Notes: generated from the sequence alone by a model not told the origin. Counted from the first letter of the stretch, positions 12,553 to 46,541 are shown. The stretch: 64,000 bases of DNA from an uncultured candidatus Porisulfidus sp. (GCA_965116025.1 OZ220480.1:193335-257334); one strand, 5' to 3'. Made by a program: numbers and translations.

Positions 12553-12561
12553 ACCGGGAGA

Positions 12562-13041
12562 TTGATGGGCATGGTGCCAATGACCGCGCGCGGGGCCTCC
12601 CTCTTGCGCGAAGAGCTTGAGCGGCTCAAGCGAGTGGAGCGCCCGGCCGTCATCCAAGCGATCGCTGAGGCGCGCGCCCATGGGGATTTGCGCGAGAACT
12701 ACGAGTACAAGGCGGCGCGGGATCAGCAAGGATTCCTGGAAGGACGCATCAAGGAAATCGAGGCCAAGCTATCTCGCGCGCAGGTCATAGACATCTCCGA
12801 ACTGCAACTCAACGGCAAGGTGGTGTTCGGCACCACGGTGGAATTGGTCGACTTGGAATCTGGAGAGCGGGTGCGCTACCAGATTGTTGGCGAGGATGAG
12901 GCGGATATCGAGAAAGACCGGCTCTCGGTGCATACGCCGATCGCTCGGGCGTTGATCGGACGCCCGGAGGGAGAAGAGATAACGGTGGAAACGCCGGGCG
13001 GGAAAAGGGTTTTCGAAATTGTCGCGGTGCGCCGCGAATAA
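12562..13041 (+). CDS. greA: transcription elongation factor GreA
   Basis: [66 protein letters not shown]. The true start may be the ATG at 12571. Confidence 0.9.
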
Positions 13042-13118
13042 TCAGGACCGCGTAGACCGCTCGCTTACCACCATCCCGCCGCTCTTCACGGGCGTACAAT
13101 GACTCTTGCGTTCACGAG

Positions 13119-15929: not shown

Positions 15930-16035
15930 AAACAGATTTTTGATTCGACGGGCGCGCCCTCGCCTCGCGGCGATCAGGAAGAATCGGGACGAAACGCCAT
16001 TGACGATTTTCGCGCGCGTGATTCGATAAGCGGGT

Positions 16036-16097
16036 GTATAATTAGCGGCAGGAGATCATCCGGGTTCCAAAGAGAAGCCCCCGAAAGGGGGTTTCTG
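16036..16097 (+). promoter_or_regulatory. rimP-nusA leader: TATAAT box plus GC hairpin with T-tract (attenuator-like)
   Basis: TATAAT at 16036-16041, preceded by GTG. Hairpin GCCCCC-gaaa-GGGGGT followed by TTCT at 16075-16097, just upstream of the rimP RBS GGGAGG. Confidence 0.4.
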
Positions 16098-16112
16098 TTA
16101 GGTGCGGGAGGA

Positions 16113-16586
16113 ATGTTGATGAGGGCCGATGGCGCGACTCACACATTGAGATCCCTGGTCGCTCCCCAAGTCGAGAAAATGGGCTATGAGTTATGGGGGC
16201 TGGTGTGCCGGCTCGGCGCGCGCCAGGGTCGGGTGTGCGTGTATATAGACCATCCGGACGGCATCAGCCATGCGGATTGCGAGGTCGTGAGCGACCAAGT
16301 GAGCGGATTGCTGGACGTGGCGGATCCGATTCGAACCCCGTATCGGCTGGAGGTTTCCTCGCCGGGGCTGGACCGGCCGTTGCTGTGTCCGGAACACTTC
16401 CGGCGTTATCGGGGCTCGCGGGTCGACATGCGCTTGCGCTGGCCGCTGGAAGGACGCCGCCGTCTGTTTGGGCGAGTGGAGGAAGCCGACGGTGACGCCG
16501 TGGAAATCCGGGAGGAGGATGGGCGGACGTTCGTGGTTCCGTACAACGTGATCGCGCGGGCGCGATTGCATTACGAGGAGGAATGA
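16113..16586 (+). CDS. rimP: ribosome maturation factor RimP
   Basis: Position immediately upstream of nusA. Motifs GYELWGLVCR...VYIDHPDGISHADCEVVSDQVSGLLDV. Confidence 0.85.
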   Translation: MLMRADGATHTLRSLVAPQVEKMGYELWGLVCRLGARQGRVCVYIDHPDGISHADCEVVSDQVSGLLDVADPIRTPYRLEVSSPGLDRPLLCPEHFRRYRGSRVDMRLRWPLEGRRRLFGRVEEADGDAVEIREEDGRTFVVPYNVIARARLHYEEE

Positions 16587-16592
16587 CTGGCG

Positions 16593-18089
16593 ATGGGCGA
16601 TGACGTGATAGACGTTCTGGGCGTGGTTGATGCCGCTTCCGCGGAGAAGGGCATTGAGCGCGAAGTGATTTTCGAGGCTCTGGAGATGGCGCTGGCCGCC
16701 GCGACCCGCAAGAATCTGGGTGGCGATGCCGACGTTCGCATCGCCATCGACCGGGAAACGGGAACCTACGAGACCTTCCGGCGCTGGCTGGTGATGGCGG
16801 ACGACGACCCCGAGTTTCAGTCGCCCGATGGGCAGAGGCTGTTGAGCGTCGCGCGGCAGACCGATCCGGGGGACCCAAAGCTTGAGGTCGGAGACTACAT
16901 TGAGGAACCGATCGATTCAGTAGACATCGCGCGGATTTCCGCGCATACCGCCAAGCAGGTCATCGTGCAAAAAGTGCGCGAGGCGGAGCGAGCGCAGATC
17001 GCGGAAGCCTACCAGGACAAGGTCGGCGAGTTGCTCATTGGGATCGTCAAGCGAGTCGAGAACTCTGGGGCTTACATAGACTTGGGCGGCAACACGGAAG
17101 GATTCATTCCGCGAGAGGACACCATCCAGCGCGAAATCATTCGCACGGGCAACCGACTGCGCGCCTATCTGCGCGAGGTGCGCGAGGAAGCCCGAGGCCC
17201 GCAACTGATCCTGTCCCGGACCGTTCCGGAGTTCCTGGTCCAGCTGTTTCACTTGGAGGTTCCAGAGATCGACCAAGGACTCATCGAGATCGTGGGAGCG
17301 GCTCGGGACCCAGGAATTCGCGCCAAGATCGCGGTGCGCACCAACGATTCGCGACTGGACCCGGTCGGCGCCTGCGTGGGCATGCGGGGATCCCGGGTGC
17401 AGGCGGTCTCCAACGAGCTTTCGGGCGAGCGCATAGACATCATCACCTGGAACGAGAACGCGGCGCAATACGTGATCAACGCCATGTCGTTGCCTTCGGT
17501 CGACGAGATCGTTCAGGACGAGGAAGGGAAGGTTATGGACATCGCGGTCGAGGAGGATCGTCTGTCGCAGGCGATTGGCCGCAACGGGCAGAATGTCCGT
17601 CTGGCGAGCCAGCTGACCGGTTGGACGCTGAACGTCATGACCGCGCAGGAGTTGCGCGAGAAAAGCGACCAGGAGCAACGGGCGCTGGAGGAGCGCTTCC
17701 AGCAAGAGCTGGATGTCGATGAGCACATCGCGGCGATTCTGGTGGAGAATGGCTTCCGCGAGATCCAGGAGTTGGCGTATGTCCCGGATCAAGATCTTCT
17801 GCAGGTGCCCGAATTCAACGAGCAAGTGGTGACGGAGCTAAAGGAGCGGGCGCGAGACAGTCTGGAGCAGAGCGCGGAGGTGGCGGAAGACGAGGATATC
17901 CTCAACGTCGAGGGAATGGATCCCGACCTCGCTATGCAACTGGCGCTTCATGGCATCACCACGCGGCGGCAGCTAGCGGAACTGGCCCTGGACGAGTTGC
18001 CCGAGATCGAGTCGTTGGACGAGGAGCGCGCGGGCGCCTTGATCATGAAAGCGCGAGAAAATCTGGAACTGCAGTTGCCGGACGCTTGA
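16593..18089 (+). CDS. nusA: transcription termination/antitermination factor NusA
   Basis: S1 and KH domains plus C-terminal acidic repeats. Canonical NusA N-terminus [31 protein letters not shown]. Confidence 0.95.
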
Positions 18090-20500
18090 GGCGCGCCAAC
18101 ATGCCCACGATCGCCGAATACGCCCCATCCTTGCGCATGTCGCCCGAGCAGTTGCTCGCGATGTGCCAGCGGGCTGGACTGGCGAAGCGCGACGAGTCGG
18201 ACGCGCTCAGTGACGAGGACAAGAAACAGTTGGTGCGCTACATGCGCGGCGGCGGACCCATGGGCGCGACGCTGGTGAAGTCCCGGCCATCGGCTGGCCA
18301 GGTCGAGATCCCGAGGACGGGCGGACCCGGCCGCAATCGAGTCAAGGTCAAGCTCAAGGGCAAGTATCGCGTGGTGCGACCCAAGATCGAGACGAGTGAA
18401 AAGACGCCAGAGCCACCTGTCGAGCCCGCGCCCGAGGTCCAGTCCGGGTCCCCTGCCGAAGTGAAGTCGGAGGAGCCGCGAGAGGAGCGGCCGGAGAAGC
18501 CCGCCACGCAGCCCAAGGAAGAGAAGAAAACCCCTGCCGCGCCGCCTCGCTCTGGGCGAAAGGGTAAGCCGCGCTCCAAGCCGCGCGACGCCAAGGATTC
18601 TCGCGGCAAGGCGCCCTCAGGCCGAGGGCGGCGCCGTGGCCAGTTGCACATAGACGACCAACGCCGAACGCGCAAGCCACGCGCCAAGAAGCAGGGCAAG
18701 GTGGTGGTCGACAACAAGCATCAGTTCACCGAGCCAACCGCCCAGATCGTGCGGGAGGTCGTCTTGGGGGGGCCGATGACGGTGGCGGAGCTGGCGATGG
18801 CGATGGCGGTCAAAGCCTCCGCGGTGATCAAGACCATGATGGAACTGGGCGAGACGGCCACCATCAATGATGTGCTGGATCCCGACACCGCGGAGTTGGT
18901 CGTCGAGAACATGGGACACAAGGCGCGGCGCTCCCGCGACGAGGATGTGGAAGCGGGCTTGCTTTTGGATTCCGCGTCGGAAGGCGATCCCGTGCCGCGC
19001 CCGCCCGTGGTGACCGTCATGGGGCATGTCGATCATGGAAAAACCTCGTTGCTGGACCATCTGCGAGAAACTCGAGTGGCCGCCGGCGAGGCGGGCGGGA
19101 TCACCCAGCACATTGGCGCCTACCAGCTGGAGACGCCGCGCGGCAAGATCACGTTCCTGGACACGCCCGGGCACGCCGCGTTCACCGCGATGCGTGGACG
19201 TGGCGCTCGGTGCACCGACATCATCGTGCTGGTGGTCGCGGCCGACGATGGCGTGAAACCGCAAACCGAGGAGGCGATCCGGCACGCGCGGGAAGCGGAA
19301 GTCCCGATCATCGTGGCGATCAACAAGATTGATCGCGAAAACGCGGATATTGAGAAGGTGCGCACGGAGCTCACGGCTCTGGGCTTGCAGCCCGAAGATT
19401 GGGGCGGCGATACGATGTTCGTACCGGTCTCGGCCAAAACGGGAGAGGGAATGGACGCGTTGCTGGAGGCTATCTCCCTGCAAGCCGAATTGATGGACCT
19501 CAAAGCACCAGCCGAGGGCATGGCCCGTGGCGTGGTGATCGAATCCAGTCTGGATCGCGGCCGTGGCTCGACCGTGACGGTGCTGGTCGAGGAAGGACGT
19601 CTGCGTCAGCGCGATCTGCTTCTGTGCGGCCAGGAATACGGGCGAGTCAGAAGCATCTTCGACGACAACGGGCGAAAAGTCGACCAAGCGGGACCGTCTT
19701 CCCCGGTGCTGGCGCTGGGCTTGTCGGGAGTCCCCCAAGCGGGGGATCCTATGCATGTGGTGGCGGACGAGCAAAAGGCGAGGGAAATAGCCGATTATCG
19801 AAAGGAGGCAGCGCGACGCCAGCAGACGGACGAGCCGCGCGAGGCTAGCCTGGCCTGGGCGATGCAAATGGGCGAGGAGCGGAAAGCGGCACTCAATCTG
19901 ATCATCAAGACGGACGTGCGCGGGAGCGGCGAAGCCCTTCGGGGAGCGCTGGATGGCTTGTCCACCGACGAGGCGACTATCAAAATCGTGCTATCAGGGG
20001 TCGGGGGCATCAACGAATCCGATGCCTTGCTGGCGGATGCCTCCAAGTCCACCCTGCTAGGCTTCAACGTGCGCGCCGATAGCGCGGCGCGGCGCGTCGT
20101 CGCGGACCGAAGCCTGGACTTGCGCTATTACAGCGTGATCTACGAGCTGGTCGACGACATCAAGGAAATGCTGGAGAAGCAATTGGCTCCAGAAGTCCGC
20201 GAGGAGATCATGGGACTGGCGAACGTCATCGAGGTCTTCCGTTCCAGCAAGATGGGTCCAGTCGCCGGTAGTCGGGTGGACCAAGGCGTGGTCCAGCGAG
20301 GTGGCTACCCAATCCGGGTGCTACGCGACAACATAGTCATTTACGAGGGAGAACTAGAGTCTTTGCGGCGCCACAAGGAGGATGTCCAGGAAGTGCAGGC
20401 CGGTACTGAATGCGGCATAGCGGTGGCCAACTACAACGATGTGCAGGTCGGCGACCAGATCGAGGTGTACCGCCGCGTGGAGACCGCCCGCACGCTTTAA
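18086..20500 (+). CDS. infB: translation initiation factor IF-2
   Basis: GTP-binding domain [17 protein letters not shown]...DTPGHAAF...NKIDR. Overlaps the nusA stop by 4 bp. Confidence 0.95.
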
Positions 20501-20509
20501 GGAAGGCGA

Positions 20510-20875
20510 GTGATTCCCGGACGGCGCCCGTTGGCGGTGGGCGAGCAAATGCGCCGGCTTCTCGGCTTGGCTCTGTTGCATGAGGCCAATGACCCGCGCT
20601 TGCGGCGGCTGACGGTCGCCGATGTCGTCATGAGCCGCGACCTCAAGCACGCCACCGTGTACGTAATCAGCGCCGAGACTCCAGATTCACGCCGTCGCGC
20701 GGAGATCGCCGCCGGGCTCACGCGCGGCATCCCGTTCTTTCGCCGGTTGATCGGCGCGCGCGCGGGCCTGCGCTATGTGCCAAAACTGCGTTTCGTTTTG
20801 GACGATACCGAGGATCGGGCGGAGCGGATCGAGAGCCTCCTGAAGGAATCCGCCCGCGCCAAGACGACCTCATGA
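20510..20875 (+). CDS. rbfA: ribosome-binding factor A
   Basis: RRLLGLALLHEANDPRLRRLTVADVVMSRDLKHATVYV. Confidence 0.85.
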   Translation: MIPGRRPLAVGEQMRRLLGLALLHEANDPRLRRLTVADVVMSRDLKHATVYVISAETPDSRRRAEIAAGLTRGIPFFRRLIGARAGLRYVPKLRFVLDDTEDRAERIESLLKESARAKTTS

Positions 20876-21786
20876 ATCGGCGGGAGCCTTGTGGCTGGCT
20901 ACTGCTGGACAAGCCGATCGGCCTGAGCTCGGCCCACGCCGTGGCCCGCGTCAAGCGCGCTTTTCAAGCGCGGCGCGCTGGCCACGCGGGCACTCTCGAC
21001 CCACTGGCGAGTGGTCTTTTGGCGATTGCGCTGGGTCCGGCCACGCGCTGGTGCGCCTACCTGCTGGACGCCCCGAAATCTTACCGGTTCACGATCCGCC
21101 TAGGGCAGACCACGGACAGTCACGATGCGGAAAGCCTTGCGCGCACGGTCCCGCCCGAAGTTGACATTCCTTCACTAAATCAAGACGATATCAAGGCTTT
21201 GCTGGCTCGCTTCACCGGGACCATCCAACAGGTTCCGCCGATGTTCTCCGCGCTCCACAGCGGGGGGCGGCGCCTGTACGAGCTGGCCCGCGAGGGCAAG
21301 GAGGTCGCTCGACCCGCCCGCGCCGTGCGGATCGATCATCTACGCTTGGTCCGGGACCGCGGGGAGGAGTGGGATCTGGAAGTCCGCTGCGGCAAGGGCA
21401 CGTATGTGCGCTCGCTCGCCCACGATATTGGCCAAACCTTGGGTTGCGGAGCTTATGTGAGCCGGTTGCGCCGCTCGGGACTCGGCTCCTTCGACGAATC
21501 GCGGGCTGTTAGCCTTGAGTGGATCGAGAGAGACTCGCGCGAGGGTCGCGAGGCGCGCTTGCTACCAGCGGATGCGGCGTTGCCGGAATGGCCGATTCGC
21601 GTCTGCGCGGCGGACGAGGAGCGCGCTTTGCGCGCCGGGAAACAGGTCACGCTTGAAGGGCCTGCGGGGTTCTGGAAACTGGTGGACGCGCGCGGGCGGT
21701 TCTTCGGCGTGGCTGAATCGCGGGACGCGGGGCGGCTTCAGCCGCGCCGCCTGATGACGATGCCAGAAGATTCGGTACAATCGTGA
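20872..21786 (+). CDS. truB: tRNA pseudouridine(55) synthase
   Basis: GWLLLDKPIGLSSAHAVARVKRAF...GHAGTLDPLASGLL. The catalytic Asp sits in the TLDP motif. Confidence 0.9.
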   Translation: MNRREPCGWLLLDKPIGLSSAHAVARVKRAFQARRAGHAGTLDPLASGLLAIALGPATRWCAYLLDAPKSYRFTIRLGQTTDSHDAESLARTVPPEVDIPSLNQDDIKALLARFTGTIQQVPPMFSALHSGGRRLYELAREGKEVARPARAVRIDHLRLVRDRGEEWDLEVRCGKGTYVRSLAHDIGQTLGCGAYVSRLRRSGLGSFDESRAVSLEWIERDSREGREARLLPADAALPEWPIRVCAADEERALRAGKQVTLEGPAGFWKLVDARGRFFGVAESRDAGRLQPRRLMTMPEDSVQS

Positions 21787-21805
21787 AACTGGAGGTGTAG
21801 CCGCT

Positions 21806-22729
21806 ATGGACGAAAAAGAATCCGCCTTGGTCGTCGCGGTCCGGGAACTAACCGTCGAGACCCGCCGGGCCCGACGCTGGCGGACCGCGTTTGGGCTGTT
21901 ACCGGTTTTGGTTCTGTTTTTAGTGCTGCTCGCGGTTCTTGGAAACGAGACTTCCCTGCCGAGCCAGAGTCCGCACTCCGCCCGGATCGACGTGTCCGGT
22001 TTGATCGCGCCCCAAGCCCCGGCAGGCTCGGAGTTCGTGAACCAGTCGTTGCGGGCCGCGTTCGAGGAAGATCTGGCGAAAGGGGTGATTCTGTGGATCA
22101 ACAGCCCCGGAGGGTCCCCGGTACAGGCGGATCGCATAGCCGTGGAGATCCAGAAGTTGAAAGCGGAATACCCAAGCAAGAAAATCTACGCGGTGGTCGA
22201 GGATCTGTGCGCCTCCGCCGCGTACTACATTGCCGTCGCGACGGACGAGATCTATGTGAACGAGAGCAGTCTGGTCGGCTCTATCGGGGTGATCGCTAGT
22301 GGGTTCGGCTTGGTAGATCTGATACGGGAGTGGGGCATCGAGCGGCGCGTGATCACGTCCGGGCGCCACAAGGCGATGTTGGACCCGTTTCTACCAATGG
22401 ATCCGGAAGCCGAGGCGCATCTGCAGGCGATAGTGGACGAGGTCCATGGGCAGTTCCGGGATATCGTCAAGGAAGCGCGGGGGGATCGCTTGGTCGCGTC
22501 AGACGAGACGCTGTTCGATGGACGGATCTGGACGGGCGATCAGGCTTGGGAAATGGGGCTGGTGGATGGATTCTCGGATGTCGAGCGAGTCGCGCGCGAG
22601 TTGATCGGTGCCGAGGATGTGGTGGATTACACCTACGAGCCGGATCTTTTGGAGCGCTTCGCGGATCGAGTCGGGACCCGCGTTGGCCAGATCATGGAGG
22701 CCTGGTCGCGCGCGCCCGTCAGATTCTAG
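21806..22729 (+). CDS. sppA: signal peptide peptidase SppA (S49 family, 36K type)
   Basis: GVILWINSPGGSPVQADRIAVEIQKLKAEYPSKKIYAVVEDLCASAAYYIAVATDEIYVNESSLVGSIGV. Confidence 0.8.
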   Translation: MDEKESALVVAVRELTVETRRARRWRTAFGLLPVLVLFLVLLAVLGNETSLPSQSPHSARIDVSGLIAPQAPAGSEFVNQSLRAAFEEDLAKGVILWINSPGGSPVQADRIAVEIQKLKAEYPSKKIYAVVEDLCASAAYYIAVATDEIYVNESSLVGSIGVIASGFGLVDLIREWGIERRVITSGRHKAMLDPFLPMDPEAEAHLQAIVDEVHGQFRDIVKEARGDRLVASDETLFDGRIWTGDQAWEMGLVDGFSDVERVARELIGAEDVVDYTYEPDLLERFADRVGTRVGQIMEAWSRAPVRF

Positions 22730-23336
22730 TCCGAGCCGGGAATCTCGAGCCCGGCATCCTGAAGCAACTCGATCAGGCGGATCATCGGCAACCCAATCAG
22801 AGCGGTCGGGTCGTCGCCTATGATGTGATCCGTGAGGCTGGCTCCCAGTCCCTCGGATCTGAAACTCGCGGTGCAGTTGTATGGCCTCTCGCTTCGCAGG
22901 TAACGCTTGATTACGTCCTCGCTCAATTCCTTGTAACGTACCGTGTGGCGGGACTCGGAGTAGCGGCATACGCCGGCGCTGGTGTCCAGAAGGCATAGAC
23001 CGGTCAGGAAAGCCACCTCCTGCCCGCTGAGCTGGCGTAGTTGCTCCACGGCCGCGCCATGCGTTCCCGGCTTGCCCAGCAACTTCCCGCTTAGCTCCGC
23101 GCACTGGTCGCTACTGATTATCAGGGAATCCGGGTGTCGGACCCCAACCTCCGCGGCCTTCTCATGGGCGAGCCGTCGCACGTAGTCCGAAACCCTCTCG
23201 CCTAGCCGCGGGGTCTCGTCGATATCGGGCGCGTCCACCGTGAAGTCTAGGCGCAAGCGTTCAAGAAGTTCTCGACGATAAGGAGAGCTGCTACCGAGCA
23301 CGAGAGGACGCGTCGCCGCCATTTCGATCATCATGG
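22726..23336 (-). CDS. maf: Maf-family nucleoside triphosphate pyrophosphatase
   Basis: LVLGSSSPYRRELLERLRLDFTVDAPDIDE...SLIISSDQ. The likely start is the MIEMAATRPLVLGSSS Met (the ORF track extends to 23382). Confidence 0.8.
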
Positions 23337-25010
23337 CGAGAGACCGACAGGATTTTCGTTGGACAGCGGAGCTCGGTTCCATCGCGCGTCTCGCTTCCGG
23401 TCTGGATTCGCGATTACGTGCAAGTAGGAAGTGGCGCGGCTAAACCCGACGTAAGCGAATCGGTCTGGACTCTCTCCAGAAGGTCGGTCGAGCACCACGA
23501 CCACCGCGAGGGATTCCAGTCCCTTAAAACGAGCGATCGTCTCGGTCACGATGCCATCGGCATCATACTGGCAAAAAACAGTGTCGGATACATCCATATC
23601 GAGGAGGCGATTCCGGAGAGACGGCGTTTCGCAAAGCACGACAATATCCTGCCGTTCAAAGTTCTCGGACAATAGGCGGTCAACGACTCGGCGTACGATC
23701 TTTTCTGGTTTCTGGGAAGGCTGGAGGTCCGTCCAGCGGGGTTTCGGACCGGATGCCCCGGAAGCGAGCGTGGTCGCCCCAGTGGTAGCCGCGACTCGCT
23801 CGGCGATCGGTTGCGCGTTTCGGCAGTTCATGGACAAATCGATCATCACGAAACCTTCGGGCGTGTCCCAGTCCCTTTCCCACAGTTTTTGGTCCTCATC
23901 CGCCAAAATCAGGAACGGAGTGTCCGAACCCCTTTCGCAAAGCGTCTGGAGCGCCTCGAGCCAAAGGCTGGAAAAGTCTTGGCCCTCATCAACGATGATC
24001 GCGTCGAATCGCGCGCCCGCCCGCTCCGCCGCGTCAACGAGAATATAAGGCACTTCCTTCTCCCACCATTCCGCTTGAGGCGCGTCGGGAACCTCGACTC
24101 CGGCCTGGCGCGCCGTGGACATGCATAAGGCATGAAACGTGTGCGCCGCAACCCCCTCCAAGGAGGGGTCGTCCCCGAGTTTTTGACCAAGCAGTTTGTT
24201 GTAGCAGGTCAGCAGCACTCGATGACCCGACGCGTGAAGTTGCCTCGCTTTCTCGCAAGCGAGAATCGTTTTTCCTGTGCCAGCCCCACCGAACACGACG
24301 ACTCGCCGATTCCGGCGCATCATGTCAAGAACCCGAATCTGCTCCTCGGTCAAATTCACAAGGCGGACCTTGGCATCGTGCGCCTCATCAGACAGGGTTC
24401 GCCGAACCTGGACGGTAGGCGCCAAGGCGTTAGCGATATCTTGGACTTGACGGAAGGATAAATCCGCGGAAAGCCGCCAATGAAGAACTACATCGCGAAT
24501 GGCGGAAGGCGCGTCCGTCAAATGGCCCGCGTCCAACGCGATCGCTTTCGGGGCATCTGGACCCAACAACGGCAATTCCCGCAAGTCAGGGAACCAAACG
24601 GCATGGCACGTCGGAACGCGACGCTCGAATCGCTCCGCTATGAACCGACCCAGAGCGGCCTTGGACGCTACCGCCTGCTCAAACGGGTTTTTGATGTCGT
24701 GGACTTCCTCGTTTCGGTCCCGGGACTTCCAACGTCCGGCTTCGACGTGGACTCCTCCGCCCTTCACCTCAAGCACGACGATCCCATGCGACCGATGAAT
24801 CAGGACAAAATCCGCTTCTCCGTCGCCGGTCCGTCGCCCGCGCGGGCCCTGCCAAGCGACGGAGTGAAGCACCGTCCAATCATCGGATAGCGTAGACAGC
24901 GCGTCGTAGACCTTCCGTTCCGAATCGGCATCGACTCCGACTGTGGGGCAGGCGAATGTGATGGCCATGACCGTGGCGTTTCCGTTCGACTCCGGCTCAC
25001 CCGAAGTCAA
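23331..25010 (-). CDS. NERD-domain protein fused to a UvrD/DUF2075-like P-loop helicase
   Basis: N-terminal NERD-like region (SERKVYDALSTLSDDWTVLHSV...GEADFVLIHRSHGIVVLEVKGG) and a Walker A motif VVVFGGAGTGKTILACEKARQL. The likely start is MAITFACP at ~24965. Confidence 0.6.
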   Translation of the reverse strand: MTSGEPESNGNATVMAITFACPTVGVDADSERKVYDALSTLSDDWTVLHSVAWQGPRGRRTGDGEADFVLIHRSHGIVVLEVKGGGVHVEAGRWKSRDRNEEVHDIKNPFEQAVASKAALGRFIAERFERRVPTCHAVWFPDLRELPLLGPDAPKAIALDAGHLTDAPSAIRDVVLHWRLSADLSFRQVQDIANALAPTVQVRRTLSDEAHDAKVRLVNLTEEQIRVLDMMRRNRRVVVFGGAGTGKTILACEKARQLHASGHRVLLTCYNKLLGQKLGDDPSLEGVAAHTFHALCMSTARQAGVEVPDAPQAEWWEKEVPYILVDAAERAGARFDAIIVDEGQDFSSLWLEALQTLCERGSDTPFLILADEDQKLWERDWDTPEGFVMIDLSMNCRNAQPIAERVAATTGATTLASGASGPKPRWTDLQPSQKPEKIVRRVVDRLLSENFERQDIVVLCETPSLRNRLLDMDVSDTVFCQYDADGIVTETIARFKGLESLAVVVVLDRPSGESPDRFAYVGFSRATSYLHVIANPDRKRDARWNRAPLSNENPVGLSP

Positions 25011-25438
25011 TCATGAATTCGATCAAGAGCGCGCGCCAAGGGCCGCGGTCAGATTCCGGAAAACTTGAGGAATCAATAGTTCGCCAAGAGGTCTTGAACG
25101 TCGACTTGAAGTCAAGCAAGCCCGGCGTGCCCGGAAAAAGAAAGATATCGCGTCTTGAGCCATGCTCGAGATGGAAATCCCTCCTTCTTGCGGCATTTCA
25201 CTCGGGGTGGTTTCTTTCGGGATAGGAAAAGGCAAAGTGCCAACATGTTACTCAATAGATCGCTGGCGTTTCTCCGGCTCTACGGCGTTGGCCGCGAAAG
25301 GACCAGATCATGTGAAAGAGGGATCAAAGCTGGGTGGGAAATACAAACGAACGCATAGCCGAGTCTCTAACTCGTGATGCGTGGTCGATTATAAATCACG
25401 CGCGATCATCATGAGCGCGGACGCGCTCGATATCCAAA

Positions 25439-27268
25439 TTGGCCCGAGCACGGGATTCCGTAGCAATCTCATTTCTAATCCCATTGACGCTGCTGGCGGC
25501 GTCGCTGTCGGCGCTGTCGCTGTCGGCGCGGGCGGAGACGATCAACCTGTACGGGTGGCAGAACCACTCGTGGGAGTTCGTGGACATCGACGGCGGGCGC
25601 AGCTTCGACCGCATTCAGTCGAACGCCGGGAACATCGGCTTCTCGGCCAGCGTGGACACCGGCATGAGCGACATAAAGGTGAACCTGCAGTGCGAGCAGT
25701 TCACCTACTACAACCACTTCGCCGGCGGCACCGGCTGGTGCAACCGCAACTCCAAGATCGGGCTGGCGCATCCGATGGCCGGCGAGATCATGTTCGCCAC
25801 CTGGCTGCTGCCGTACAACGAGGGCGTGGCCCAATGGGTGGACCCGTTCTACGACGCCGGGGCCGACTCGCACACCAGCATCATGGGCTCGGTCGGGGCC
25901 AACACCATCTTCTACAACACCGGCGACTTCGACCAGCAGGCGTCGGCGTCCAATCCTGGCACTGGCTTCTCCGGCAACGAGTTCAACTACGCCGGGGGCG
26001 GCTACGACACCGGCTTCAACCGGCGCCAGGAGAACATCATCCAGTACTGGTCGCCGAACTGGAACGGCTTCGTGTTCCGCTTCGCCTGGACGGCCGGCAA
26101 TCGCGACGAGACCCACGCGCTCAAGGACGCCAAAGGTAATTACGCGGCCGGCCCCAAGATCGACCCGGTGATCCGCTCGAGCAGCCTGGCGTACACGAAC
26201 GGCCCGCTGTGGCTGGCGGCGACCTGGCAGGACCACGAGGACTGGACGGCGGTCTCGGTCGGGGAGATGGAGAGCTCGGACGCGGAGAGCTTCCGTCTGG
26301 CCGGGCGCTACATCATGGACCTGGGCGACGGCATGAGCGTTCAATTGTCCGCCATGTGGGAGACCTTGGAGTACGAGTTCCACGGCGTGACCACCATCGA
26401 TAAGGCCATGAAGGCGTTCGGGTATGGGAATTTCATGGATTCTTACGAGTTGAGCGTCACGGATGCGGAGATAATGAAGAAGAAGACCCAAGGGCTGGCG
26501 CTCGATATCTTGACGGATGAGAAGGGCATGCTGATTCCTATGGGGGACACGGCGCGGGGTTTATATGGGGAGCAGGTTAAAACCACTATGAGCCTGTACA
26601 CCGCATACATGGGTGAGATAGACACCGTAACCTCCACCAGCTTGAACTTGGTCGCTGAACGCAGAACTGTGGTCGACTGGAACGACTATTACAAAGAGGC
26701 GCCTGATAATCCTGTTAAAGTCAGCACTACCGCCATGCGAACCGGGTCCCAAAATGTCATGCTTTTCACGACCATGCTGAGCACGACTACGCTGAACGCG
26801 GCCAAAACGGCCGCGGAGGAGGCCAAAAAGAAGGATATGGATGATCGAACGGGCGAGGACAAATCGAAAATCAAGTTCTATGACGACCTGGTCTCGATGG
26901 CGAAATCCCGAGCCCGCGACGAGAAGAGCATGGGCGGGAACGTGAAGATCGAGCGAGACGCCTGGATGGTGTCGGGCAAGATCAAGTTCGGCGGCCCGCT
27001 GGACTTCCGCTTCTCCTACATGGACGCCGACGACCTGGAACTGTCGTGCAACTACTGCATGGGAGACTGGGACGAGACGGCGGCGGACGCCTGGAACGTC
27101 GGGGTGTTCTACACGATGCCGGCGGGGACCGAGCTGCGGCTGACGTATTCGGAAGTCAACAACGACGACAACGGGACCTACGGGCAGGGCATCTCGGGGA
27201 CTGGCTTGGGAGTGGCTGGCGCGGAGATCGAGATGTTCGCGCTGGGGATCGTGCACTGGTTCGACTGA
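25439..27268 (+). CDS. porin-like family copy 3 (N-form B, cassette type X)
   Basis: Near-identical framework to the other copies. There is no ATG, so the ORF track uses TTG at 25439 (MARARDSVAISFLIPLTLLAASLSALSLSARA then ETINLY). Its cassette is almost identical to copy 1. Confidence 0.7.
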   Translation: MARARDSVAISFLIPLTLLAASLSALSLSARAETINLYGWQNHSWEFVDIDGGRSFDRIQSNAGNIGFSASVDTGMSDIKVNLQCEQFTYYNHFAGGTGWCNRNSKIGLAHPMAGEIMFATWLLPYNEGVAQWVDPFYDAGADSHTSIMGSVGANTIFYNTGDFDQQASASNPGTGFSGNEFNYAGGGYDTGFNRRQENIIQYWSPNWNGFVFRFAWTAGNRDETHALKDAKGNYAAGPKIDPVIRSSSLAYTNGPLWLAATWQDHEDWTAVSVGEMESSDAESFRLAGRYIMDLGDGMSVQLSAMWETLEYEFHGVTTIDKAMKAFGYGNFMDSYELSVTDAEIMKKKTQGLALDILTDEKGMLIPMGDTARGLYGEQVKTTMSLYTAYMGEIDTVTSTSLNLVAERRTVVDWNDYYKEAPDNPVKVSTTAMRTGSQNVMLFTTMLSTTTLNAAKTAAEEAKKKDMDDRTGEDKSKIKFYDDLVSMAKSRARDEKSMGGNVKIERDAWMVSGKIKFGGPLDFRFSYMDADDLELSCNYCMGDWDETAADAWNVGVFYTMPAGTELRLTYSEVNNDDNGTYGQGISGTGLGVAGAEIEMFALGIVHWFD

Positions 27269-27287
27269 CCCTTCGTCATCCACGAAG

Positions 27288-27318
27288 CGAGCGGGCGCCC
27301 TCGGGCGCCCGCTTTCTT
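27288..27318 (+). terminator. rho-independent terminator of copy 3
   Basis: GCGGGCGCCC-tcg-GGCGCCCGC followed by TTTCTT. Confidence 0.7.
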
Positions 27319-27843
27319 GTGGGCTCAGGAATTCCTGACAGGTCCGCCACCAGGCGGGACCAAGACGATGGCCAGCCTCGAGACCGAGACGGACCCGCTT
27401 CGGACTACCCCCCGAATGCTTGGAGTGGCTCCACGGAAGCCGTGAGGGAAACTCCGGTTTCAGGCTTTCATCAAAGACTGTGCACCCGATATTCTTGAGA
27501 AAGGAGTTCCGGGGACCGATGGACTTGTGAAAGCCTTGGTTCACCCACCGCGCGAGCGAGACGCGTCGCGCGAAGTCCACTCGATCAAGGGCGATGGCCC
27601 TCTCGCTCTTTTCCTCCCCGAGGCGCGCGCTGACCCGAACCCTCCGGTTTCCCGCCGCCTCGCCTGGATTCCAGCTATACCGAGAATTCTCGGTCCTCCA
27701 TCACTTTGTCGTGGATTGGGTCATCCCGATCTCGCCCGCCGCGAGCGAATGGCCTTCCGAGCGTGTGGCGGGCGCGGCGAAGCCAGGTCTCGCGCCGCCG
27801 GCGCTGGCCCGACTCCCGATCTGGCCGCGAAACGCCGGATCCA

Positions 27844-27876
27844 AAGAAAGCGGGCGCCCGAAGGCGCCCGCTCGCT
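27844..27876 (-). terminator. rho-independent terminator of copy 4
   Basis: Mirror GC hairpin plus T-tract on the minus strand. Confidence 0.7.
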
Positions 27877-27894
27877 GTCGTGAATGACGAAGGG

Positions 27895-29830
27895 TCAGTC
27901 GAACCAGTGCACGATCCCCAGCGCGAACATCTCGATCTCCGCCCCCGGCGTCCCCAGGCCAGTCCCCGAGATGCCCTGCCCGTAGGTCCCGTTGTCGTCG
28001 TTGTTGACTTCCGAATACGTCAGCCGCAGCTCGGTCCCCGCCGGCATCGTGTAGAACACCCCGACGTTCCAGGCGTCCGCCGCCGTCTCGTCCCAGTCTC
28101 CCATGCAGTAGTTGCATGACAGCTCCAGGTCGTCGGCGTCCATGTAGGAGAAGCGGAAGTCCAGCGGGCCGCCGAACTTGATCTTGCCCGACACCATCCA
28201 GGCGTCCCGCTCGATCTTCACGCTCGACCCCATGGTCTGCTCCAGCTTGGCGGCAGCATATTTTTCCTTGCCCTCCTCGTATGCCGTCATGGCATCGTCG
28301 TAGGCTTTCTTAGCCTCGTTGTACTTCTCGTCATATGGCCTCATGGCCTCCTCCTTGACCTTCGCCACGTATTCCTTGTACCAGTCAGCGCCTGTTTTGT
28401 CGCCCGAATATTTCGTGGTCGATGTCTTTAAAGTATTCAGTGTCGTGGAGCTCAGTTTGGTGGTAACGAGCGTTCGCAGCGCCTGATCCGTTCCTATAGT
28501 GTTAAGTCTATAGTATTGAACCAGCTTTCTCCGATGTACGAGGCCAGAACCCCATTGCGCTAGCTCTGTGTGGAAGCTGCCTTGGAGAGTACTTAATTCC
28601 TTGGGCACCGCGATATTACTGAGGCTTGATGTCGCGCTCTTGCTATCCACTGGAATGGTCCGCCAGTACCCGCTCTCGTCAAGCAACATCTCCATCGCAA
28701 GCCCTTGGGTCATCTGCGCGTCGATCTCGGCTTGGGTGGCCATCCCTCGTTCAGGCTTCGTCGTGGTCGGCTTCGTCGGCATGTCCATGTCGGCGGGGGC
28801 CATGACCTTCATGTCGTAGTAGGTCTTCTCGAAATGGTTGATGTTGGGATCGGTGCCGCCGTACCCGAACGCCTTCATGGCCTTGTTAATGTCGGTCACG
28901 CCGTGGAACTCGTACTCCAAAGTCTCCCACATGGCCGACAATTGAACGCTCATGCCGTCGCCCAGGTCCATGATGTAGCGCCCGGCCAGACGGAAGCTCT
29001 CCGCGTCCGAGCTCTCCATCTCCCCGACCGAGACCGCCGTCCAGTCCTCGTGGTCCTGCCAGGTCGCCGCCAGCCACAGCGGGCCGTTCGTGTACGCCAG
29101 GCTGCTCGAGCGGATCACCGGGTCGATCTTGGGGCCGGCCGCGTACTTGCCCTCGGCGTTCTTGAGCGCGTGGGTCTCGTCGCGATTGCCGGCCGTCCAG
29201 GCGAAGCGGAACACGAAGCCGTTCCAGTTCGGCGACCAGTACTGGATGATGTTCTCCTGGCGCCGGTTGAAGCCGGTGTCGTAGCCGCCCCCGGCGTAGT
29301 TGAACTCGTTGCCGGAGAAGCCAGTGCCAGGATTGGACGCCGACGCCTGCTGGTCGAAGTCGCCGGTGTTGTAGAAGATGGTGTTGGCCCCGACCGAGCC
29401 CATGATGCTGGTGTGCGAGTCGGCCCCGGCGTCGTAGAACGGGTCCACCCACTGGGCCACGCCCTCGTTGTACGGCAGCAGCCAGGTGGCGAACATGATC
29501 TCGCCGGCCATCGGGTGCGCCAGCCCGATCTTGGAGTTGCGGTTGCACCAGCCGGTGCCGCCGGCGAAGTGGTTGTAGTAGGTGAACTGCTCGCACTGCA
29601 GGTTCACCTTTATGTCGCTCATGCCGGTGTCCACGCTGGCCGAGAAGCCGATGTTCCCGGCGTTCGACTGGATGCGGTCGAAGCTGCGCCCGCCGTCGAT
29701 GTCCACGAACTCCCACGAGTGGTTCTGCCACCCGTACAGGTTGATCGTCTCCGCCCGCGCCGACAGCGACAGCGCCGACAGCGACGCCGCCAGCAGCGTC
29801 AATGGGATTAGAAATGGTATCTCCTCGAAA
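27895..29830 (-). CDS. porin-like family copy 4 (N-form B, cassette type Y')
   Basis: Full-length framework with an intact cassette homologous to the two halves of copy 2. There is no in-frame ATG near the signal peptide (...EEIPFLIPLTLLAAS). The ORF-track extension to 29973 reads into the IS4 junction. Confidence 0.7.
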
Positions 29831-29975
29831 TCCCAATCCCACCGAGAACCATGATGACCATGCGCCCCAAGACTCCGCCCAAGAGACCGTGGAAACCGAA
29901 ATCCACCGATCCCCGGAGCATGGGAAACTGAGACGAAACCATGGCTGATTCTGAAACTTCGGGATGACTCCAACT

Positions 29976-31311
29976 CACTAGTGTCCCAACGTTTCAGTTC
30001 GATTGGTCTGCAATAGATTGTTTATAATGAGTTTTTTCGCGATTTCCAGCGTTGTCGATTTCAATCTTTGGCCGGAGCCCGTGGCGGACCCTGCCCGGCG
30101 CGAGCTGTCGCGAGGGGGGTCAAGCCAATGCATTCCGGAAAACTCGTGTTCGCTCAAGTGATGGATCATCTTCCCTGGCCCAGTTTCCAGCGGCGCGTCG
30201 AGCGCCACGGCGGACATCACAAGGTCAAGTCCTTCAGTTGCGGCGATCAGTATCGCTGCATGGCTTTCGCGCAACTGACCTATCGGTCCTCCCTGCGCGA
30301 CGTCGAGGCCTGCCTGCGCGCGCAGTCGAGCAAGCTGTACCACATGGGCATCCGCGGGGGCGTGGCGAGGAACACGCTGGCGAACGCCAACGCGACCCGG
30401 GACTGGAGGATCCATGCCGATTTCGCGCGCGACCTGATTGACGAGGCGCGGCGTCTTCTTGGCGAGGAGAGCCACGGACTGGATCTGGACCGCACCGTCT
30501 ACGCGTTGGACTCGTCCACCATCGACCTGTGCCTGTCGCTGTTTCCGTGGGCGCCGTTTCGCGCGACCAAGGCGGCCGTCAAGATGCATACGCTGCTCGA
30601 CCTGCGCGGAAACATCCCGACTTTTCTGCATGTTACGGACGGAAAGGTTCACGACGTGAACATTCTGGACCTGCTGGTTCCAGAGCCCGGGGCCTTCTAC
30701 GTCATGGATCGGGCCTACCTCGATTTCTCCCGCTTGCACGCGCTGCGCCTGCATGGGGCCCACTTCGTGTTGCGCTCCAAGTCCAACATCAAACTCCGGC
30801 GCTTGTCTTCCCGCGCGGCCGACCGCGACGCGGGCGTTCTTCGCGACCAGGTGGTCCGGGCCAGCGGCGCCACCACCGCGAGCGCCTATCCCGACCGGCT
30901 TCGGCGCGTCAAGCATCGAGACCGAGAGCGGGAGAAGACCCTCGTGTTCCTGACCAACGACTTCACGCTTCCGGCGCGGACGATCGCCGAGCTGTATCGG
31001 GCGCGCTGGCGCGTGGAGCTGTTCTTCAAATGGATCAAGCGGCATCTGAGGATCCAGTCGTTCTTCGGCACGACGGAGAACGCCGTGAAGACCCAGATCT
31101 GGATCGCGATCTCGGTTTACGTGCTGGTGGCGATCCTTCGGAAGCGGTTGCGGCTGGAGACGGAGCTGCGCGCTATTCTCCAGATTTTGAGCCTCACTCT
31201 TTTTGAGAAAGTTCCTTTATATCAATTACTTGCGAAGAATGAACCCCAAATCGAACTGCCGGGGGGCCCTAAACAGTTGAATTTGCTACCATTAACGTTG
31301 GGACACTAGTG
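29976..31311 (+). mobile_element. IS4-family insertion sequence (1336 bp), perfect 18-bp terminal inverted repeats, 9-bp target-site duplication
   Basis: Left end CACTAGTGTCCCAACGTT (29976-29993). Right end AACGTTGGGACACTAGTG (31294-31311). Direct repeat ACTCCAACT at 29967-29975 and 31312-31320. Confidence 0.85.
30068..31309 (+). CDS. IS4-family DDE transposase
   Basis: 413 aa, with an IS4-like N-terminal domain (MHSGKLVFAQVMDHLPWPSFQRRVERHGG...KVKSFSCGDQY) and a DDE core. Confidence 0.85.
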   Translation: MAGARGGPCPARAVARGVKPMHSGKLVFAQVMDHLPWPSFQRRVERHGGHHKVKSFSCGDQYRCMAFAQLTYRSSLRDVEACLRAQSSKLYHMGIRGGVARNTLANANATRDWRIHADFARDLIDEARRLLGEESHGLDLDRTVYALDSSTIDLCLSLFPWAPFRATKAAVKMHTLLDLRGNIPTFLHVTDGKVHDVNILDLLVPEPGAFYVMDRAYLDFSRLHALRLHGAHFVLRSKSNIKLRRLSSRAADRDAGVLRDQVVRASGATTASAYPDRLRRVKHRDREREKTLVFLTNDFTLPARTIAELYRARWRVELFFKWIKRHLRIQSFFGTTENAVKTQIWIAISVYVLVAILRKRLRLETELRAILQILSLTLFEKVPLYQLLAKNEPQIELPGGPKQLNLLPLTLGH

Positions 31312-31473
31312 ACTCCAACTATGCCGACAGATTGCCGAACCAACCCATTCCGAGGCAGGAAACGACGACGATGGCCACCCTAATAGGCGAGCGTCTTGAG
31401 CGTTGGCTTATGCGGTGTGAGAGTCGATGTCTACCATCGGGCGATACTGAGTGATGGAATTGATAATTCGCGC

Positions 31474-33033
31474 TTATTTGACTGGCACGGGAGACGTGAA
31501 CACGAATCGAGCCAAGCCATCGCCATAGCGGACCGCGCACCGTGATGGCAAAGACTGCAACATGTTGGTGTCCACAAGGTAGCGCTCTGACTGACGCAGG
31601 CCACGAATGTTTCGCTCGCGCTCGGCGAGGACCGCGTTGGCCTCGAAATCGCGCATCTCGTCATCGATTAGGATGCTGCCGCTCATGCGGGCCAGCCATA
31701 ATGCCGTGTCTGGATCGTTGACCCGGTAGGCGAATTTCAGGCCGCAGTTCTCGGTTACTGAAGATATCACCTGTTCCGGGTCCAGATCGTCGGGAACGTT
31801 GCGCAAGTCGTTGACCGTCTGATGCGCCAGCACTAGGTGCGCCCGTTTGTCCCGGATAGAGGCGAGCGCCTCCAGTAGCGGAGCGCTGATCAGATAGCGG
31901 AGCTCATCCAGAAACATGCAGACTTGGCGGGATCTTTCGCGGGCGCGGCGCTCGCAACTCTGGATCACCGACAGCACGAACATCTTCTGAAGCTTGAGAA
32001 TACGGGAGTGGCGTGGGGAGCCGAGCACGTAGATCACCGCGCCCTCCTCAATCGCTCGCGCGACATCCAACCCCTCCTCGGCCCGAGCCGCGGGGGTCGC
32101 CGCGATCTCTTCCATATCATCAATGAACTTCGTGGCCTTGCGCGCAACGGTCTCGCTTCGGAACGTCGCCAAAAGATTCGGCAGGGACTCGCCGTCATGC
32201 AACCGCGCGAATTCTCGTGCGGCGCGACGATCATTGAGACGATAGAAATCCGCCTCGGAGCCTCGCTCTCCGAGGCCGAAGCTTGCCACCAGGAGCTCCT
32301 CAATCTCATCGGAACTCTTTCCGCGCAGGGGATTCCATCGCGCCTCCTCGCCCATGAGATCCAAGCGATAGAAGGGTTTGCCGGCCTCGCGGGCCGCACG
32401 CTCCAAGACTCGTGGAGCGTACTCGTCACGCTTAGGGTCCACCACCACGACCGCCTCGCCTTGCCGCGCGGCCTGGGTTAGCAGAATTCCTGCCAAGACA
32501 CCTTTTCCACTTCCGGTCATCCCGATAATATCGATATGGGACCGCCTCCATAGATTCTGATCCACGTGCACGGGATCGCCGTTCGGATCCAGCCCTAAAA
32601 ATAGTCGGTCATCAGACTGGCAGAACGGCAAGGGGTCATACTCGTTCCGGGCCTTCGGCAGGAAGTCTCCGATGTCGCGGATATCGGTCCGCGCGTCCCG
32701 GGCCAGTGGGCTACGTTTCATCCATCGCGCGCGCCACCGCTCGAGCGCGCCGCTTCCTCGACGCGCCATGAGGATGGCCAGCGCGGTGCCAATGAGAAAC
32801 TGTCCCATGAAGAGCGGGACATGCCAGCCCGGATGGTTTGTCCCTATCGCATGCGGCACCAGCACCAAGAGCGCCGTAAAGACGGACAAGGTCAGCATCA
32901 GCAAGCCAAGCGCCCTCGGCGCTTGTAGCAGACCAAGCGTCATGAGAATGCCGCCGGGCAACCCAAGCCAAGGCCAACTCCATCCGTAGAACATGTTTTC
33001 GGACAGGCCGCCGACGATCTCCCAAAACCCCAT
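31474..33033 (-). CDS. TraD/VirD4/TrwB-like type IV coupling ATPase (orphan)
   Basis: N-terminal transmembrane segments, Walker [15 protein letters not shown], Walker [12 protein letters not shown], and LAHQTVNDL. No other conjugation genes lie nearby. Confidence 0.6.
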
Positions 33034-33057
33034 GCGAGCGTCCTATTGGGGTCGGGC

Positions 33058-33147
33058 TGGCGGAGAGGGAGGGATTCGAACCCCCGGAACCTTTCGATTC
33101 AACGGTTTTCAAGACCGCCGCATTCGACCACTCTGCCACCTCTCCGC
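33058..33147 (-). tRNA. tRNA-Ser (anticodon UGA)
   Basis: The reverse complement reads GGAGAGGTGGCAGAGTGGTCGAATGC...CGGTCTTGAAAACCG...GGGGGTTCGAATCCCTCCCTCTCCGCCA. It has a long variable arm, an anticodon loop CTTGAAA, and a 3' CCA. Confidence 0.9.
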
Positions 33148-33183
33148 ATAGCGTTCCGGTGGACCGCGTCCGCGCGAGCCAGT

Positions 33184-33990
33184 CTACACCGCGAGCACGT
33201 CCTGCATGGAATACAGGCTAGGAGGCTGACCCACCACCCAAGCGGCCGCGCGCATGGCGCCACTGGCGAAGATCTCCCGGCTTCCGGCATGGTGCGCCAG
33301 CTCCAGCCGCTCGCCGTTCCAAGCGAAAATCACCCGGTGCTCACCGACCACGTTCGCCATTCGCATGATGTGGAACTGTATCTTGTCGATTTCCCGCTCG
33401 ACACCCGTCGCCAGTGCCTGAAAAGACGCGCAATCCGGGAATCGCTGGCCAGTTCCCTTGGCCACGGCCTCGCCCAGCGCTAGCGCGGTGCCAGAGGGCG
33501 CGTCATGCTTCTCGCGATGATGCAATTCTACGATGTCCGCTTCCGCTTCGGAACCAAGCGCCTTGGATGCCGCGGTGACCAGATTCAGCATCAGGTTAAT
33601 GCCAACGCTCATGTTCGGCGCCATCACGATAGGAATTTCCCGGGCTCCTTGGGCGATAGCCTCCAGCTGCTTTTGGTCGTGCGCGGTCGTGCCGATGACC
33701 ATTCCCTTGTTTTTCTCCACGCAGAATTGAACCAGATCCACCGTGTACTCGGGGCAGGTGAAGTCAATAGCCACATCGAAGTCCGTGTGACAGTATTCCA
33801 GCGATCCAGAAATCGCCACGCCCGATTCCTTTCCTCCCGTGAACAGTCCCGCATCCCGCCCAATCACCAACTCGTCCTTGCTACGCGAGCTAGCCGCGCC
33901 GAGCGTGATGCCGGGGGTCTCCAGCGATACTCGAACCAGGATGCTTCCCATGCGGCCGGTGACCCCGGCGATTCCCACGCGAACCTTCTC
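33184..33990 (-). CDS. dapB: 4-hydroxy-tetrahydrodipicolinate reductase
   Basis: [20 protein letters not shown] (NAD(P)-binding) ... [14 protein letters not shown]. Located downstream of dnaJ as in Pseudomonas-type synteny. Confidence 0.85.
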
Positions 33991-43953: not shown

Positions 43954-44061
43954 TGGAGAATCCTCCCTGAAAAGATAGCGACTAGTTTACCAAATCCCTA
44001 GCCACGCGAGTTTCTGGGTTTCTCGATTTGCTGATGCTCTACGATACCATTTCTAATCCCA

Positions 44062-45948: not shown

Positions 45949-45969
45949 CCGGTTGGGTCACCCACGATA

Positions 45970-46520: not shown

Positions 46521-46541
46521 CGTCGTGAATGATCCAACGGA

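Follow-up and report, generated by a model that had tools for sequence, protein, structure and literature searches.

Three separate histories probably account for the block beside tRNA-Ser(UGA) in a Porisulfidus chromosome: a retained coupling-protein gene, a porin-bounded inversion and an IS4 insertion

Did a single integrative element place a coupling-protein gene, a pair of porin genes and an insertion sequence side by side at the 3' end of a tRNA gene, or did these parts arrive independently? This question is raised by an 8-kb block (positions 25011-33147) in a stretch of 64,000 nucleotides (nt) from an uncultured candidatus Porisulfidus sp. (GCA_965116025.1 OZ220480.1:193335-257334), the whole of which was analysed and is referred to below as the window. 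An initial annotation had read the block as one decayed element that integrated at tRNA-Ser(UGA), brought or captured the porin pair (pair 2 of the window) and was capped by an insertion sequence of the IS4 family. We found that the block consists of three parts of differing age and is not one element. The region is best explained as a composite of three unrelated events, namely the retention of an old type IV coupling protein (T4CP) gene as a relic, an inversion that brought pair 2 to its present position, and a later IS4 insertion; we assign this explanation a probability of roughly 0.72. The part of the block next to the tRNA gene is organized as follows.

33058-33145, minus strand: tRNA-Ser(UGA) gene with encoded CCA end (ARAGORN; Rfam RF00005, 59.9 bits)
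33034-33057, minus strand: spacer of 24 nt from the tRNA 3' end to the ATG of the T4CP gene, with a GGA Shine-Dalgarno-like motif
31474-33033, minus strand: predicted orphan MobB-type T4CP gene, 519 amino acids (aa), ATG start (Pfam, fold search, motifs, alignment)
31313-31473, no strand: intergenic stretch 3' of the T4CP gene, beginning with the right-hand copy of the IS4 target-site duplication (CTCCAAC, 7 bases, 31313-31319)

T4CPs are components of conjugative and mobilizable elements. The product of 31474-33033 scored above the Pfam gathering cut-offs for three T4CP domains, TrwB_AAD_bind (46.6 bits, cut-off 20.5), T4SS-DNA_transf (40.3 bits, cut-off 20.1) and TraG-D_C (27.1 bits, cut-off 22). 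A Walker A motif (GMTGSGKG) is located at residues 171-178 and a Walker B motif (CMFLDE) at residues 372-377, and G171, T173, G174, G176, K177 and G178 of the former as well as F374, D376 and E377 of the latter were invariant in 16 aligned homologs. Three N-terminal hydrophobic segments (approximately residues 20-37, 41-63 and 72-90) appeared as long helices in an AlphaFold model, which had a mean predicted local distance difference test (pLDDT) score of 71 and a confident core at residues 140-435. Sequence searches of the PDB with the protein or with a 16-sequence profile returned zero matches, and a fold search was therefore needed. The best PDB matches obtained with Foldseek (overall E 3e-10 to 1e-7) were Cag-beta (8dol, E 3e-10), TrwB (1e9r/1e9s, E 6e-9) and DotL (6sz9), with a sequence identity of just 14-18% in the structural alignments. 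Every membership test that was run identified the product as a predicted T4CP of the VirD4/TraG/TraD/TrwB superfamily, in agreement with its initial annotation as a TraD/VirD4-like ATPase, and within this superfamily it is a predicted MobB-type protein. The alignment also revealed that a C-terminal tail of ~60 aa, which ends in LLDVD in the island homologs described below, is missing from the Porisulfidus T4CPs. An F-, SXT- or TOL-type TraD was considered and rejected, as the NCBIfam TraD/TraG models scored far under their cut-offs (84 versus 366 bits for SXT_TraD). Membership in a defence system, for which PADLOC gave a weak partial match to mad8 (2e-15) and a match to HerA, was likewise rejected, since a relaxase gene accompanies all homologs from outside the genus.

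This linkage became apparent in a homolog scan of one genome per species, which returned 46 loci, 33 of them from outside Porisulfidus. A tblastn match to a MobC relaxase of ~240 aa was located immediately 3' of the T4CP gene in 33/33 of these outside loci. Two of the MobC proteins were scanned and reached 254 and 240 bits on the NCBIfam MobC model NF041423 (cut-off 200), and one of these proteins was 42% identical to the annotated mobC product of a 5.5-kb Klebsiella plasmid. On this plasmid mobC overlaps the end of the T4CP homolog, and on a Spongiibacter plasmid typed as MOBC a mobC-sized gene overlaps the T4CP stop in the same manner. A plasmid collection contained 1388 matches to the T4CP, all with <60% identity, and 1016 of the 1388 were typed as mobilizable; among the annotated homologs, the closest were T4CPs encoded on small mobilizable plasmids, which were 38-43% identical across 85-95% of the protein.

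Many of the loci outside the genus also contained a tyrosine integrase gene, with a tRNA or tmRNA gene a few kb off (3-4 kb upstream of the T4CP gene). The gene order in Methylophaga and Methylophilaceae was tRNA-Met or another tRNA, integrase, AlpA, a protein of 270-310 aa (weakly similar to STY4528-type island replication proteins), T4CP and mobC. Loci with this combination of integrase, AlpA, STY4528-like protein, MobB and MobC look like integrative mobilizable elements. Such islands were seen in Methylophilaceae, Methylophaga, Methylococcales, Thiobacillus and others (loci L016-L031, L036, L043, L049 and L051), with tRNA-Met, tmRNA or tRNA-Val 3-4 kb upstream of the T4CP gene or tRNA-Arg on the far side. 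A coupling protein of their own together with a MobC relaxase has been noted for plasmids and some integrative mobilizable elements, with Streptococcus among the hosts (PMC5704250). In a quick neighbour-joining (NJ) tree, an analysis that the initial annotation had proposed, the Porisulfidus T4CPs formed one clade nested among T4CPs with a downstream MobC match. These results suggest that the initial annotation was right to invoke an integrative element as far as the T4CP gene is concerned; they do not extend to the rest of the block.

'Candidatus Porisulfidus' comprises metagenome-assembled Gammaproteobacteria with chromosomes of ~1.6-2.0 Mb, whose isolate names suggest that they come from sponges. 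The T4CP gene was present in 13/13 species representatives of the genus, and its junction with tRNA-Ser was conserved in 11 other loci (10 of the 13 representatives and assembly L052). The spacer between the tRNA gene and the ATG measured 24 nt in ten of these loci and 25 nt in one, with the GGA motif and the CTCGC-ATG context kept, and the tRNA-Ser gene itself was 96-99% identical in 11 Porisulfidus loci. To the right of tRNA-Ser the window continues with dapB, dnaJ, dnaK, grpE and nadK. Nine of the 11 loci matched this upstream run (grpE, dnaK, dnaJ, dapB and tRNA-Ser, plus nadK and recN in loci that extend to these genes), and a tenth locus, which is cut at its end, showed dnaJ, dapB and tRNA-Ser. 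The identity to the window protein was 77-79% for the T4CP, 77-81% for DapB and similar for DnaJ. The ratio of non-synonymous to synonymous substitution rates (dN/dS) was 0.07-0.13 for the T4CP gene versus 0.09-0.14 for dapB, values that are only approximate because dS was saturated. Pairwise T4CP distances were strongly correlated with mean core-gene distances (r = 0.98). The T4CP gene thus appears to be under purifying selection like dapB, to be inherited vertically and not to be eroding, which contradicts the picture of an eroded element. Because it has long been kept intact and constrained, the gene is very probably functional today.

ARAGORN and Rfam agreed that tRNA-Ser(UGA) is the sole tRNA gene of the window. 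Consensus scans revealed no promoter-like site within 31200-33500 and no terminator-like site between tRNA-Ser and the T4CP gene, which makes co-transcription plausible, and the two genes are probably transcribed together. In another genome (L001/L011, 9592-16600) the unit of tRNA-Ser and T4CP gene is located beside lepA and not dapB, followed by Fic, AAA_14/DUF4143 and HTH genes and by degP-mucB-rseA-rpoE; here both genes were held together through a rearrangement. A further Porisulfidus species (L002/L013, 14870-15412) carries a second, truncated T4CP copy that comprises the C-terminal ~150-180 aa and sits among defence-like genes (Macro, NOV_C, AAA_21 and Mrr/ResIII). It is 77% identical to the window protein, compared with 66% for the full-length copy of that genome, which hints at a duplication or a second acquisition.

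Remnants of an island were searched for in the window and in related loci. An HMM of MobC (--max, E up to 10) found no match in the window or in 14 Porisulfidus loci, while the positive control (L033) was recovered at 2e-47. Two island integrases gave no tblastn match in the window (E up to 0.01), the large open reading frames (ORFs) of 23-34 kb contained no recombinase domain, and neither the window nor the Porisulfidus loci contained relics of the integrase, AlpA, the STY4528-like protein or the 441-aa and 234-aa island proteins. No gene of a type IV secretion system (T4SS) and no relaxase gene was located within 10 kb of the T4CP gene in the window and 14 related loci. The earlier observation that no integrase or other transfer genes remain in the block was hence confirmed, and the same applies to the contact between the T4CP gene and the tRNA 3' end, apart from the spacer having been given as 25 bp and not 24 nt.

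A direct repeat of the tRNA 3' end (attR), expected by the initial annotation near 25.0-25.4 kb, was not found in the window or in relatives. The last 16-25 nt of tRNA-Ser had no second copy with <=3 mismatches on the strand of the tRNA in the block, the stretch 25011-25438 included; elsewhere in the window the 16-nt pattern gave 3-mismatch matches near chance level and none in the block. A blastn-short search with the tRNA-Ser end in the window and 14 loci, which resolves attachment (att) sites of >=12 nt, yielded chance matches of 12-16 nt only. An empty tRNA-Ser site, the other sign of integration that had been anticipated, was not found among the relatives, and the T4CP gene occupied the site identically in 11 other loci. 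The constellation that had been named in advance as speaking against an element, i.e. the same gene content next to tRNA-Ser in relatives and no att repeats, is what we observed for the T4CP gene. In summary, the T4CP gene appears to be of MobB descent and to be no longer part of a MOBC module or integrative element, as no mobC, integrase or att repeats accompany it.

Porin pair 2 most likely entered the block by another route. The following features of the block and of the window to its left are relevant here.

27895-29973, minus strand: porin B of pair 2 (Porin_4; Pfam and paralogy), ORF as listed, true start probably near 29800-29850
27269-27894, no strand: spacer between the convergent pair-2 porins, with a 33-nt G+C-rich inverted repeat at each end (27286-27318 and 27844-27876)
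25439-27268, plus strand: porin A of pair 2 (Porin_4), protein 95.5% identical to the pair-1 porin at 1746-3527
25011-25438, no strand: unique non-coding stretch from the NERD-helicase gene to porin A, inversion junction on the pair-2 side
23331-25010, minus strand: NERD and UvrD helicase gene, left neighbour of the block
5960-25438, no strand: inverted segment of ~19.5 kb with the HEC-01 pair, carA to infB, truB, sppA, maf and the NERD helicase
1746-5959, no strand: porin pair 1, colinear with pair 2 (88-95% nt identity), adjoining mlaC (1033-1689), the other inversion junction

The window contains four convergent Porin_4 pairs with 8 genes in total (1746-5959, 25439-29973, 44044-48440 and 51573-56034). 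Between the copies, ~320 codons at the 5' end, ~120 codons at the 3' end and part of the inter-gene spacer were 88-99% identical, and the middles were highly variable. Pair 2 carries inverted-repeat arms of 976 nt (98%) and 365 nt (95%) that correspond to the 5' and 3' gene parts, so that the pair as annotated is real. The part of its spacer at 27567-27894 was conserved in other porin pairs; neither a convincing ORF nor an Rfam family was present in the spacer as a whole (27269-27894). On the source contig this porin family forms at least 7 paralog clusters and includes a 635-aa homolog of porin B, and most of the contig's members may lie in the window. Several copies were present in every relative, and no porin gene was found within 10 kb of the T4CP gene in the relatives examined. 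The arrival of pair 2 in an element, or its capture by one, is not supported, as the pair belongs to a multi-copy family, is absent from this site in relatives and flanks an inversion together with its twin pair.

This inversion was recognized by comparing gene orders. Eight relatives have a gap of 0.55-2.7 kb with higA or higBA after the T4CP gene and then carA, carB and greA, with rimP, nusA and infB next in the loci long enough to include them, all in the same direction. In two of the eight, rbfA, truB, sppA and maf come afterwards, and a small toxin-antitoxin pair lies between maf and mlaC. The window reads mlaC, pair 1, HEC-01 pair, carA to infB, truB, sppA, maf, NERD helicase, pair 2, IS4 and T4CP. 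The segment 5960-25438 is therefore inverted relative to these relatives, with a porin pair at each junction. The GC skew flips sign at both junctions, and the homology between pairs 1 and 2 begins only at ~25470. Undoing the inversion gives the order T4CP, IS4, porin pair, HEC-01 pair and carA. The 72-nt carA leader (8098-8169) is still located beside carA and is the sole part that the window has in common with the gap of the relatives; the 154 nt after the T4CP stop have no homolog in their higA-containing gap. Recombination between the oppositely oriented porin copies of pairs 1 and 2 is, as we infer, the most likely cause of the inversion.

The gap downstream of the T4CP gene differs among species: most have higBA, L008 has three genes of unknown function, L001 carries Fic/AAA_14/HTH genes, and L052 has housekeeping genes. 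Judged by these contents, it is evidently a small variable spot in the genus and a rearrangement breakpoint. In the window, the HEC-01 candidate defence pair (6106-7395 and 7397-8014, plus strand) consists of an AAA_21/AAA_15 ATPase (2e-154) and a DUF4276 protein (1.5e-80) as detected by PADLOC; its GC content is 0.54-0.55, and it was absent from all related loci fetched.

Several further observations concern these surroundings. A higA antitoxin gene is located just 3' of the T4CP gene, in convergent orientation, in L004-L010 and L014, and L010 also contains higB (e.g. L010 3101-3700); the first ~300 nt of this locus are conserved among these genomes and absent from the window. The NERD and UvrD-like helicase at 23331-25010 (minus strand), which matched RTasNERD-Hel in PADLOC (1.6e-55), lies just upstream of maf, followed to the left by sppA, truB and infB. 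At its position the relatives have a small toxin-antitoxin-like gene pair, with a PIN toxin in one case. The second porin of pair 1 (4116-5947, minus strand) is split into two ORFs (4676-5947 and 4116-4679) and is probably a pseudogene or the result of a sequencing frameshift. Stretches of low GC content (0.50-0.59 versus ~0.62 elsewhere) occur at 48000-51000, 56000-59000 and 61000-64000, beside porin pairs 3 and 4. Over 25-33 kb the GC content was 0.56-0.65, compared with ~0.61-0.65 in the flanking core genes, with no clear step at the edges of the block.

The third part of the block is the IS4 element, which was correctly recognized at first.

29975-31312, no strand: IS4-family insertion sequence of 1338 bp with perfect 19-bp terminal inverted repeats
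30068-31309, plus strand: IS4 transposase gene (NF033592; Pfam DDE_Tnp_1 and DUF4372)

The transposase reached 261 bits on NF033592 (cut-off 115), and the element is flanked by an intact target-site duplication (CTCCAAC, 7-8 bp; 29968-29974 and 31313-31319). It is a simple, recent and independent insertion between porin B and the T4CP gene. It does not cap the block, as had been thought, and lies inside it. A role of IS4 as the agent of the rearrangement was rejected because the element is single-copy in the window and its target duplication is intact.

Taken together, the history of the region may be reconstructed as follows. A CloDF13-like MOBC integrative mobilizable element with integrase, AlpA, a replication-like protein, MobB and MobC would once have been present in the ancestor of Porisulfidus. 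After this single ancient acquisition everything except mobB would have been lost. The surviving mobB, the product of which is presumably a membrane-anchored hexameric-type ATPase, would have become fixed 24 nt downstream of tRNA-Ser(UGA) and would since have been inherited vertically and kept intact by selection. In the genome represented by the window, the HEC-01 defence pair and a porin pair would then have entered the gap 3' of the T4CP gene. Recombination of the inverted pair-1 and pair-2 porin copies would have flipped the ~19.5-kb segment and left pair 2 beside the T4CP gene, and IS4 would have transposed later between porin B and the T4CP gene.

Several points weigh against this reconstruction. 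Porisulfidus retains no integrase, att repeat or remnant of mobC, and the proposed island origin therefore draws solely on the genomic contexts of homologs with 33-50% identity and on one quick NJ tree. Approximately 10 kb on each side of each homolog were inspected, so that T4SS or relaxase genes may be located elsewhere in the genomes. The T4CP gene has yet other neighbours in L052, L011, L012, L013, L015 and L058, and dS exceeded 1 in the selection analysis. The window genome is an outgroup to the relatives compared, and parsimony therefore does not fix the direction of the inversion. Finally, the assembly is metagenome-derived, and repeats of ~1 kb with 94-99% identity at the ends of an inversion leave room for a misassembly or a polymorphism within the population. 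On this last ground, the inversion and with it the adjacency of pair 2 and the T4CP gene might be an assembly artefact or one state of a segment that is invertible within the population. Such repeats are indeed present in inverted orientation at both junctions of this metagenome-assembled chromosome. However, unique sequence (the HEC-01 pair, the NERD helicase and IS4 with its target duplication) consistently adjoins the porin pairs, and the source contig of 2.02 Mb probably stems from a long-read assembly like the related ones, which renders an artefact or an invertible state quite improbable. The single eroded island at tRNA-Ser that was originally proposed for all of 25011-33147, with pair 2 as its cargo or capture and IS4 as its cap, is the least credible of the readings considered. 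It would fit the position of the T4CP gene at the tRNA 3' end, the integrase-bearing islands beside tRNA genes in which T4CP homologs occur elsewhere, and the absence of pair 2 and IS4 from the site in relatives. This absence is accounted for by the inversion and the transposition, respectively. Moreover, an attR-like repeat of the tRNA end is lacking in the window and relatives, the T4CP gene is fixed at the site genus-wide and evolves like a core gene, pair 2 is one of four pairs in the window, belongs to a family that is multi-copy in every relative and brackets the inversion with its twin, and IS4 has its own target duplication inside the block and not at its edge.

Other alternatives concern the T4CP gene itself. 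It could be an old chromosomal gene that was never part of an island, with mobile elements having taken copies from such genes. All 13 species representatives and L058 have the gene, frequently surrounded by housekeeping genes, and its descent is vertical. Yet the Porisulfidus clade is nested in a wider radiation that extends from Betaproteobacteria to plasmids of Enterobacterales and in which all homologs retrieved are followed by a MobC match, and T4CPs are established as belonging to conjugative or mobilizable elements; a purely chromosomal origin is thus very improbable. Less remote, although still unlikely, is that the T4CP still serves conjugation, mobilization or effector secretion as an active component of a system with its T4SS, relaxase and other genes elsewhere in the chromosome. 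Strong purifying selection, the invariance of Walker A, Walker B and many other alignment columns, and the retention of the three-transmembrane (TM) anchor, which MobB requires for function (PMC7431656), would agree with such a role. It is at odds with the lack of mobC or other transfer genes within 10 kb in 14 Porisulfidus loci, with the missing C-terminal tail of the island homologs and with the small genomes (1.6-2.0 Mb). A tentative possibility is that the orphan MobB-type ATPase, without relaxase, integrase and C-terminal tail, has been co-opted genus-wide to work on its own in the membrane; it would be expressed from the tRNA-Ser transcript and would no longer serve self-mobilization. 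Candidate roles of a co-opted ATPase would be interference with incoming conjugative or mobilizable DNA, or the export or uptake of DNA or protein via an unrelated channel.

The locus illustrates that adjacency to a tRNA 3' end does not make a whole neighbourhood an island. Comparison with ~12 related genomes allowed three histories to be told apart, i.e. those of a relic fixed long ago, an inversion bounded by repeats and a recent IS insertion. Throughout a genus of symbionts with reduced genomes, an orphan coupling protein has been maintained by purifying selection, with its gene at a constant spacing from a tRNA gene. This suggests that hosts can keep mobilization proteins for their own use. 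A second outcome is a family of small mobilizable islands in Proteobacteria that are located at tRNA or tmRNA genes and encode a CloDF13-like MobB/MobC module. Neither the retention of the orphan T4CP nor this island family changes current concepts.

Among known systems, the thrU-tyrU-glyT-thrT-tufB operon of E. coli is a unit in which tRNAs and an mRNA are co-transcribed. The arrangement in Porisulfidus, known here from the sequence alone, resembles it in that a protein gene follows closely 3' of a tRNA gene with no terminator-like site in between. With TrwB of R388, VirD4/Cag-beta and TraD the window T4CP shares the fold and the Pfam domains, but sequence identity is low, the TraD models score below their cut-offs and no T4SS genes are nearby. 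CloDF13 MobB is a T4CP with three TM helices encoded by a mobilizable MOBC plasmid (PMC7431656). The window protein is like it, by description and not by direct alignment, in combining a T4CP nucleotide-binding domain with a predicted three-helix N-terminal membrane anchor. In contrast to the mobB-mobC module of CloDF13, no mobC follows the gene in the window or in any Porisulfidus locus examined, and unlike in CloDF13 and other MOBC plasmids the gene is chromosomal and begins 24 nt past a tRNA gene. With 519 aa the protein is also shorter than its homologs from islands and plasmids (580-613 aa), the C-terminal tail of which it lacks. Compared with integrative mobilizable elements that carry MobB and MobC, the window lacks the integrase, AlpA, the replication-like gene, the relaxase and att repeats. 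What is left is one fixed gene, the product of which is sister to the T4CPs of these elements in the quick tree.

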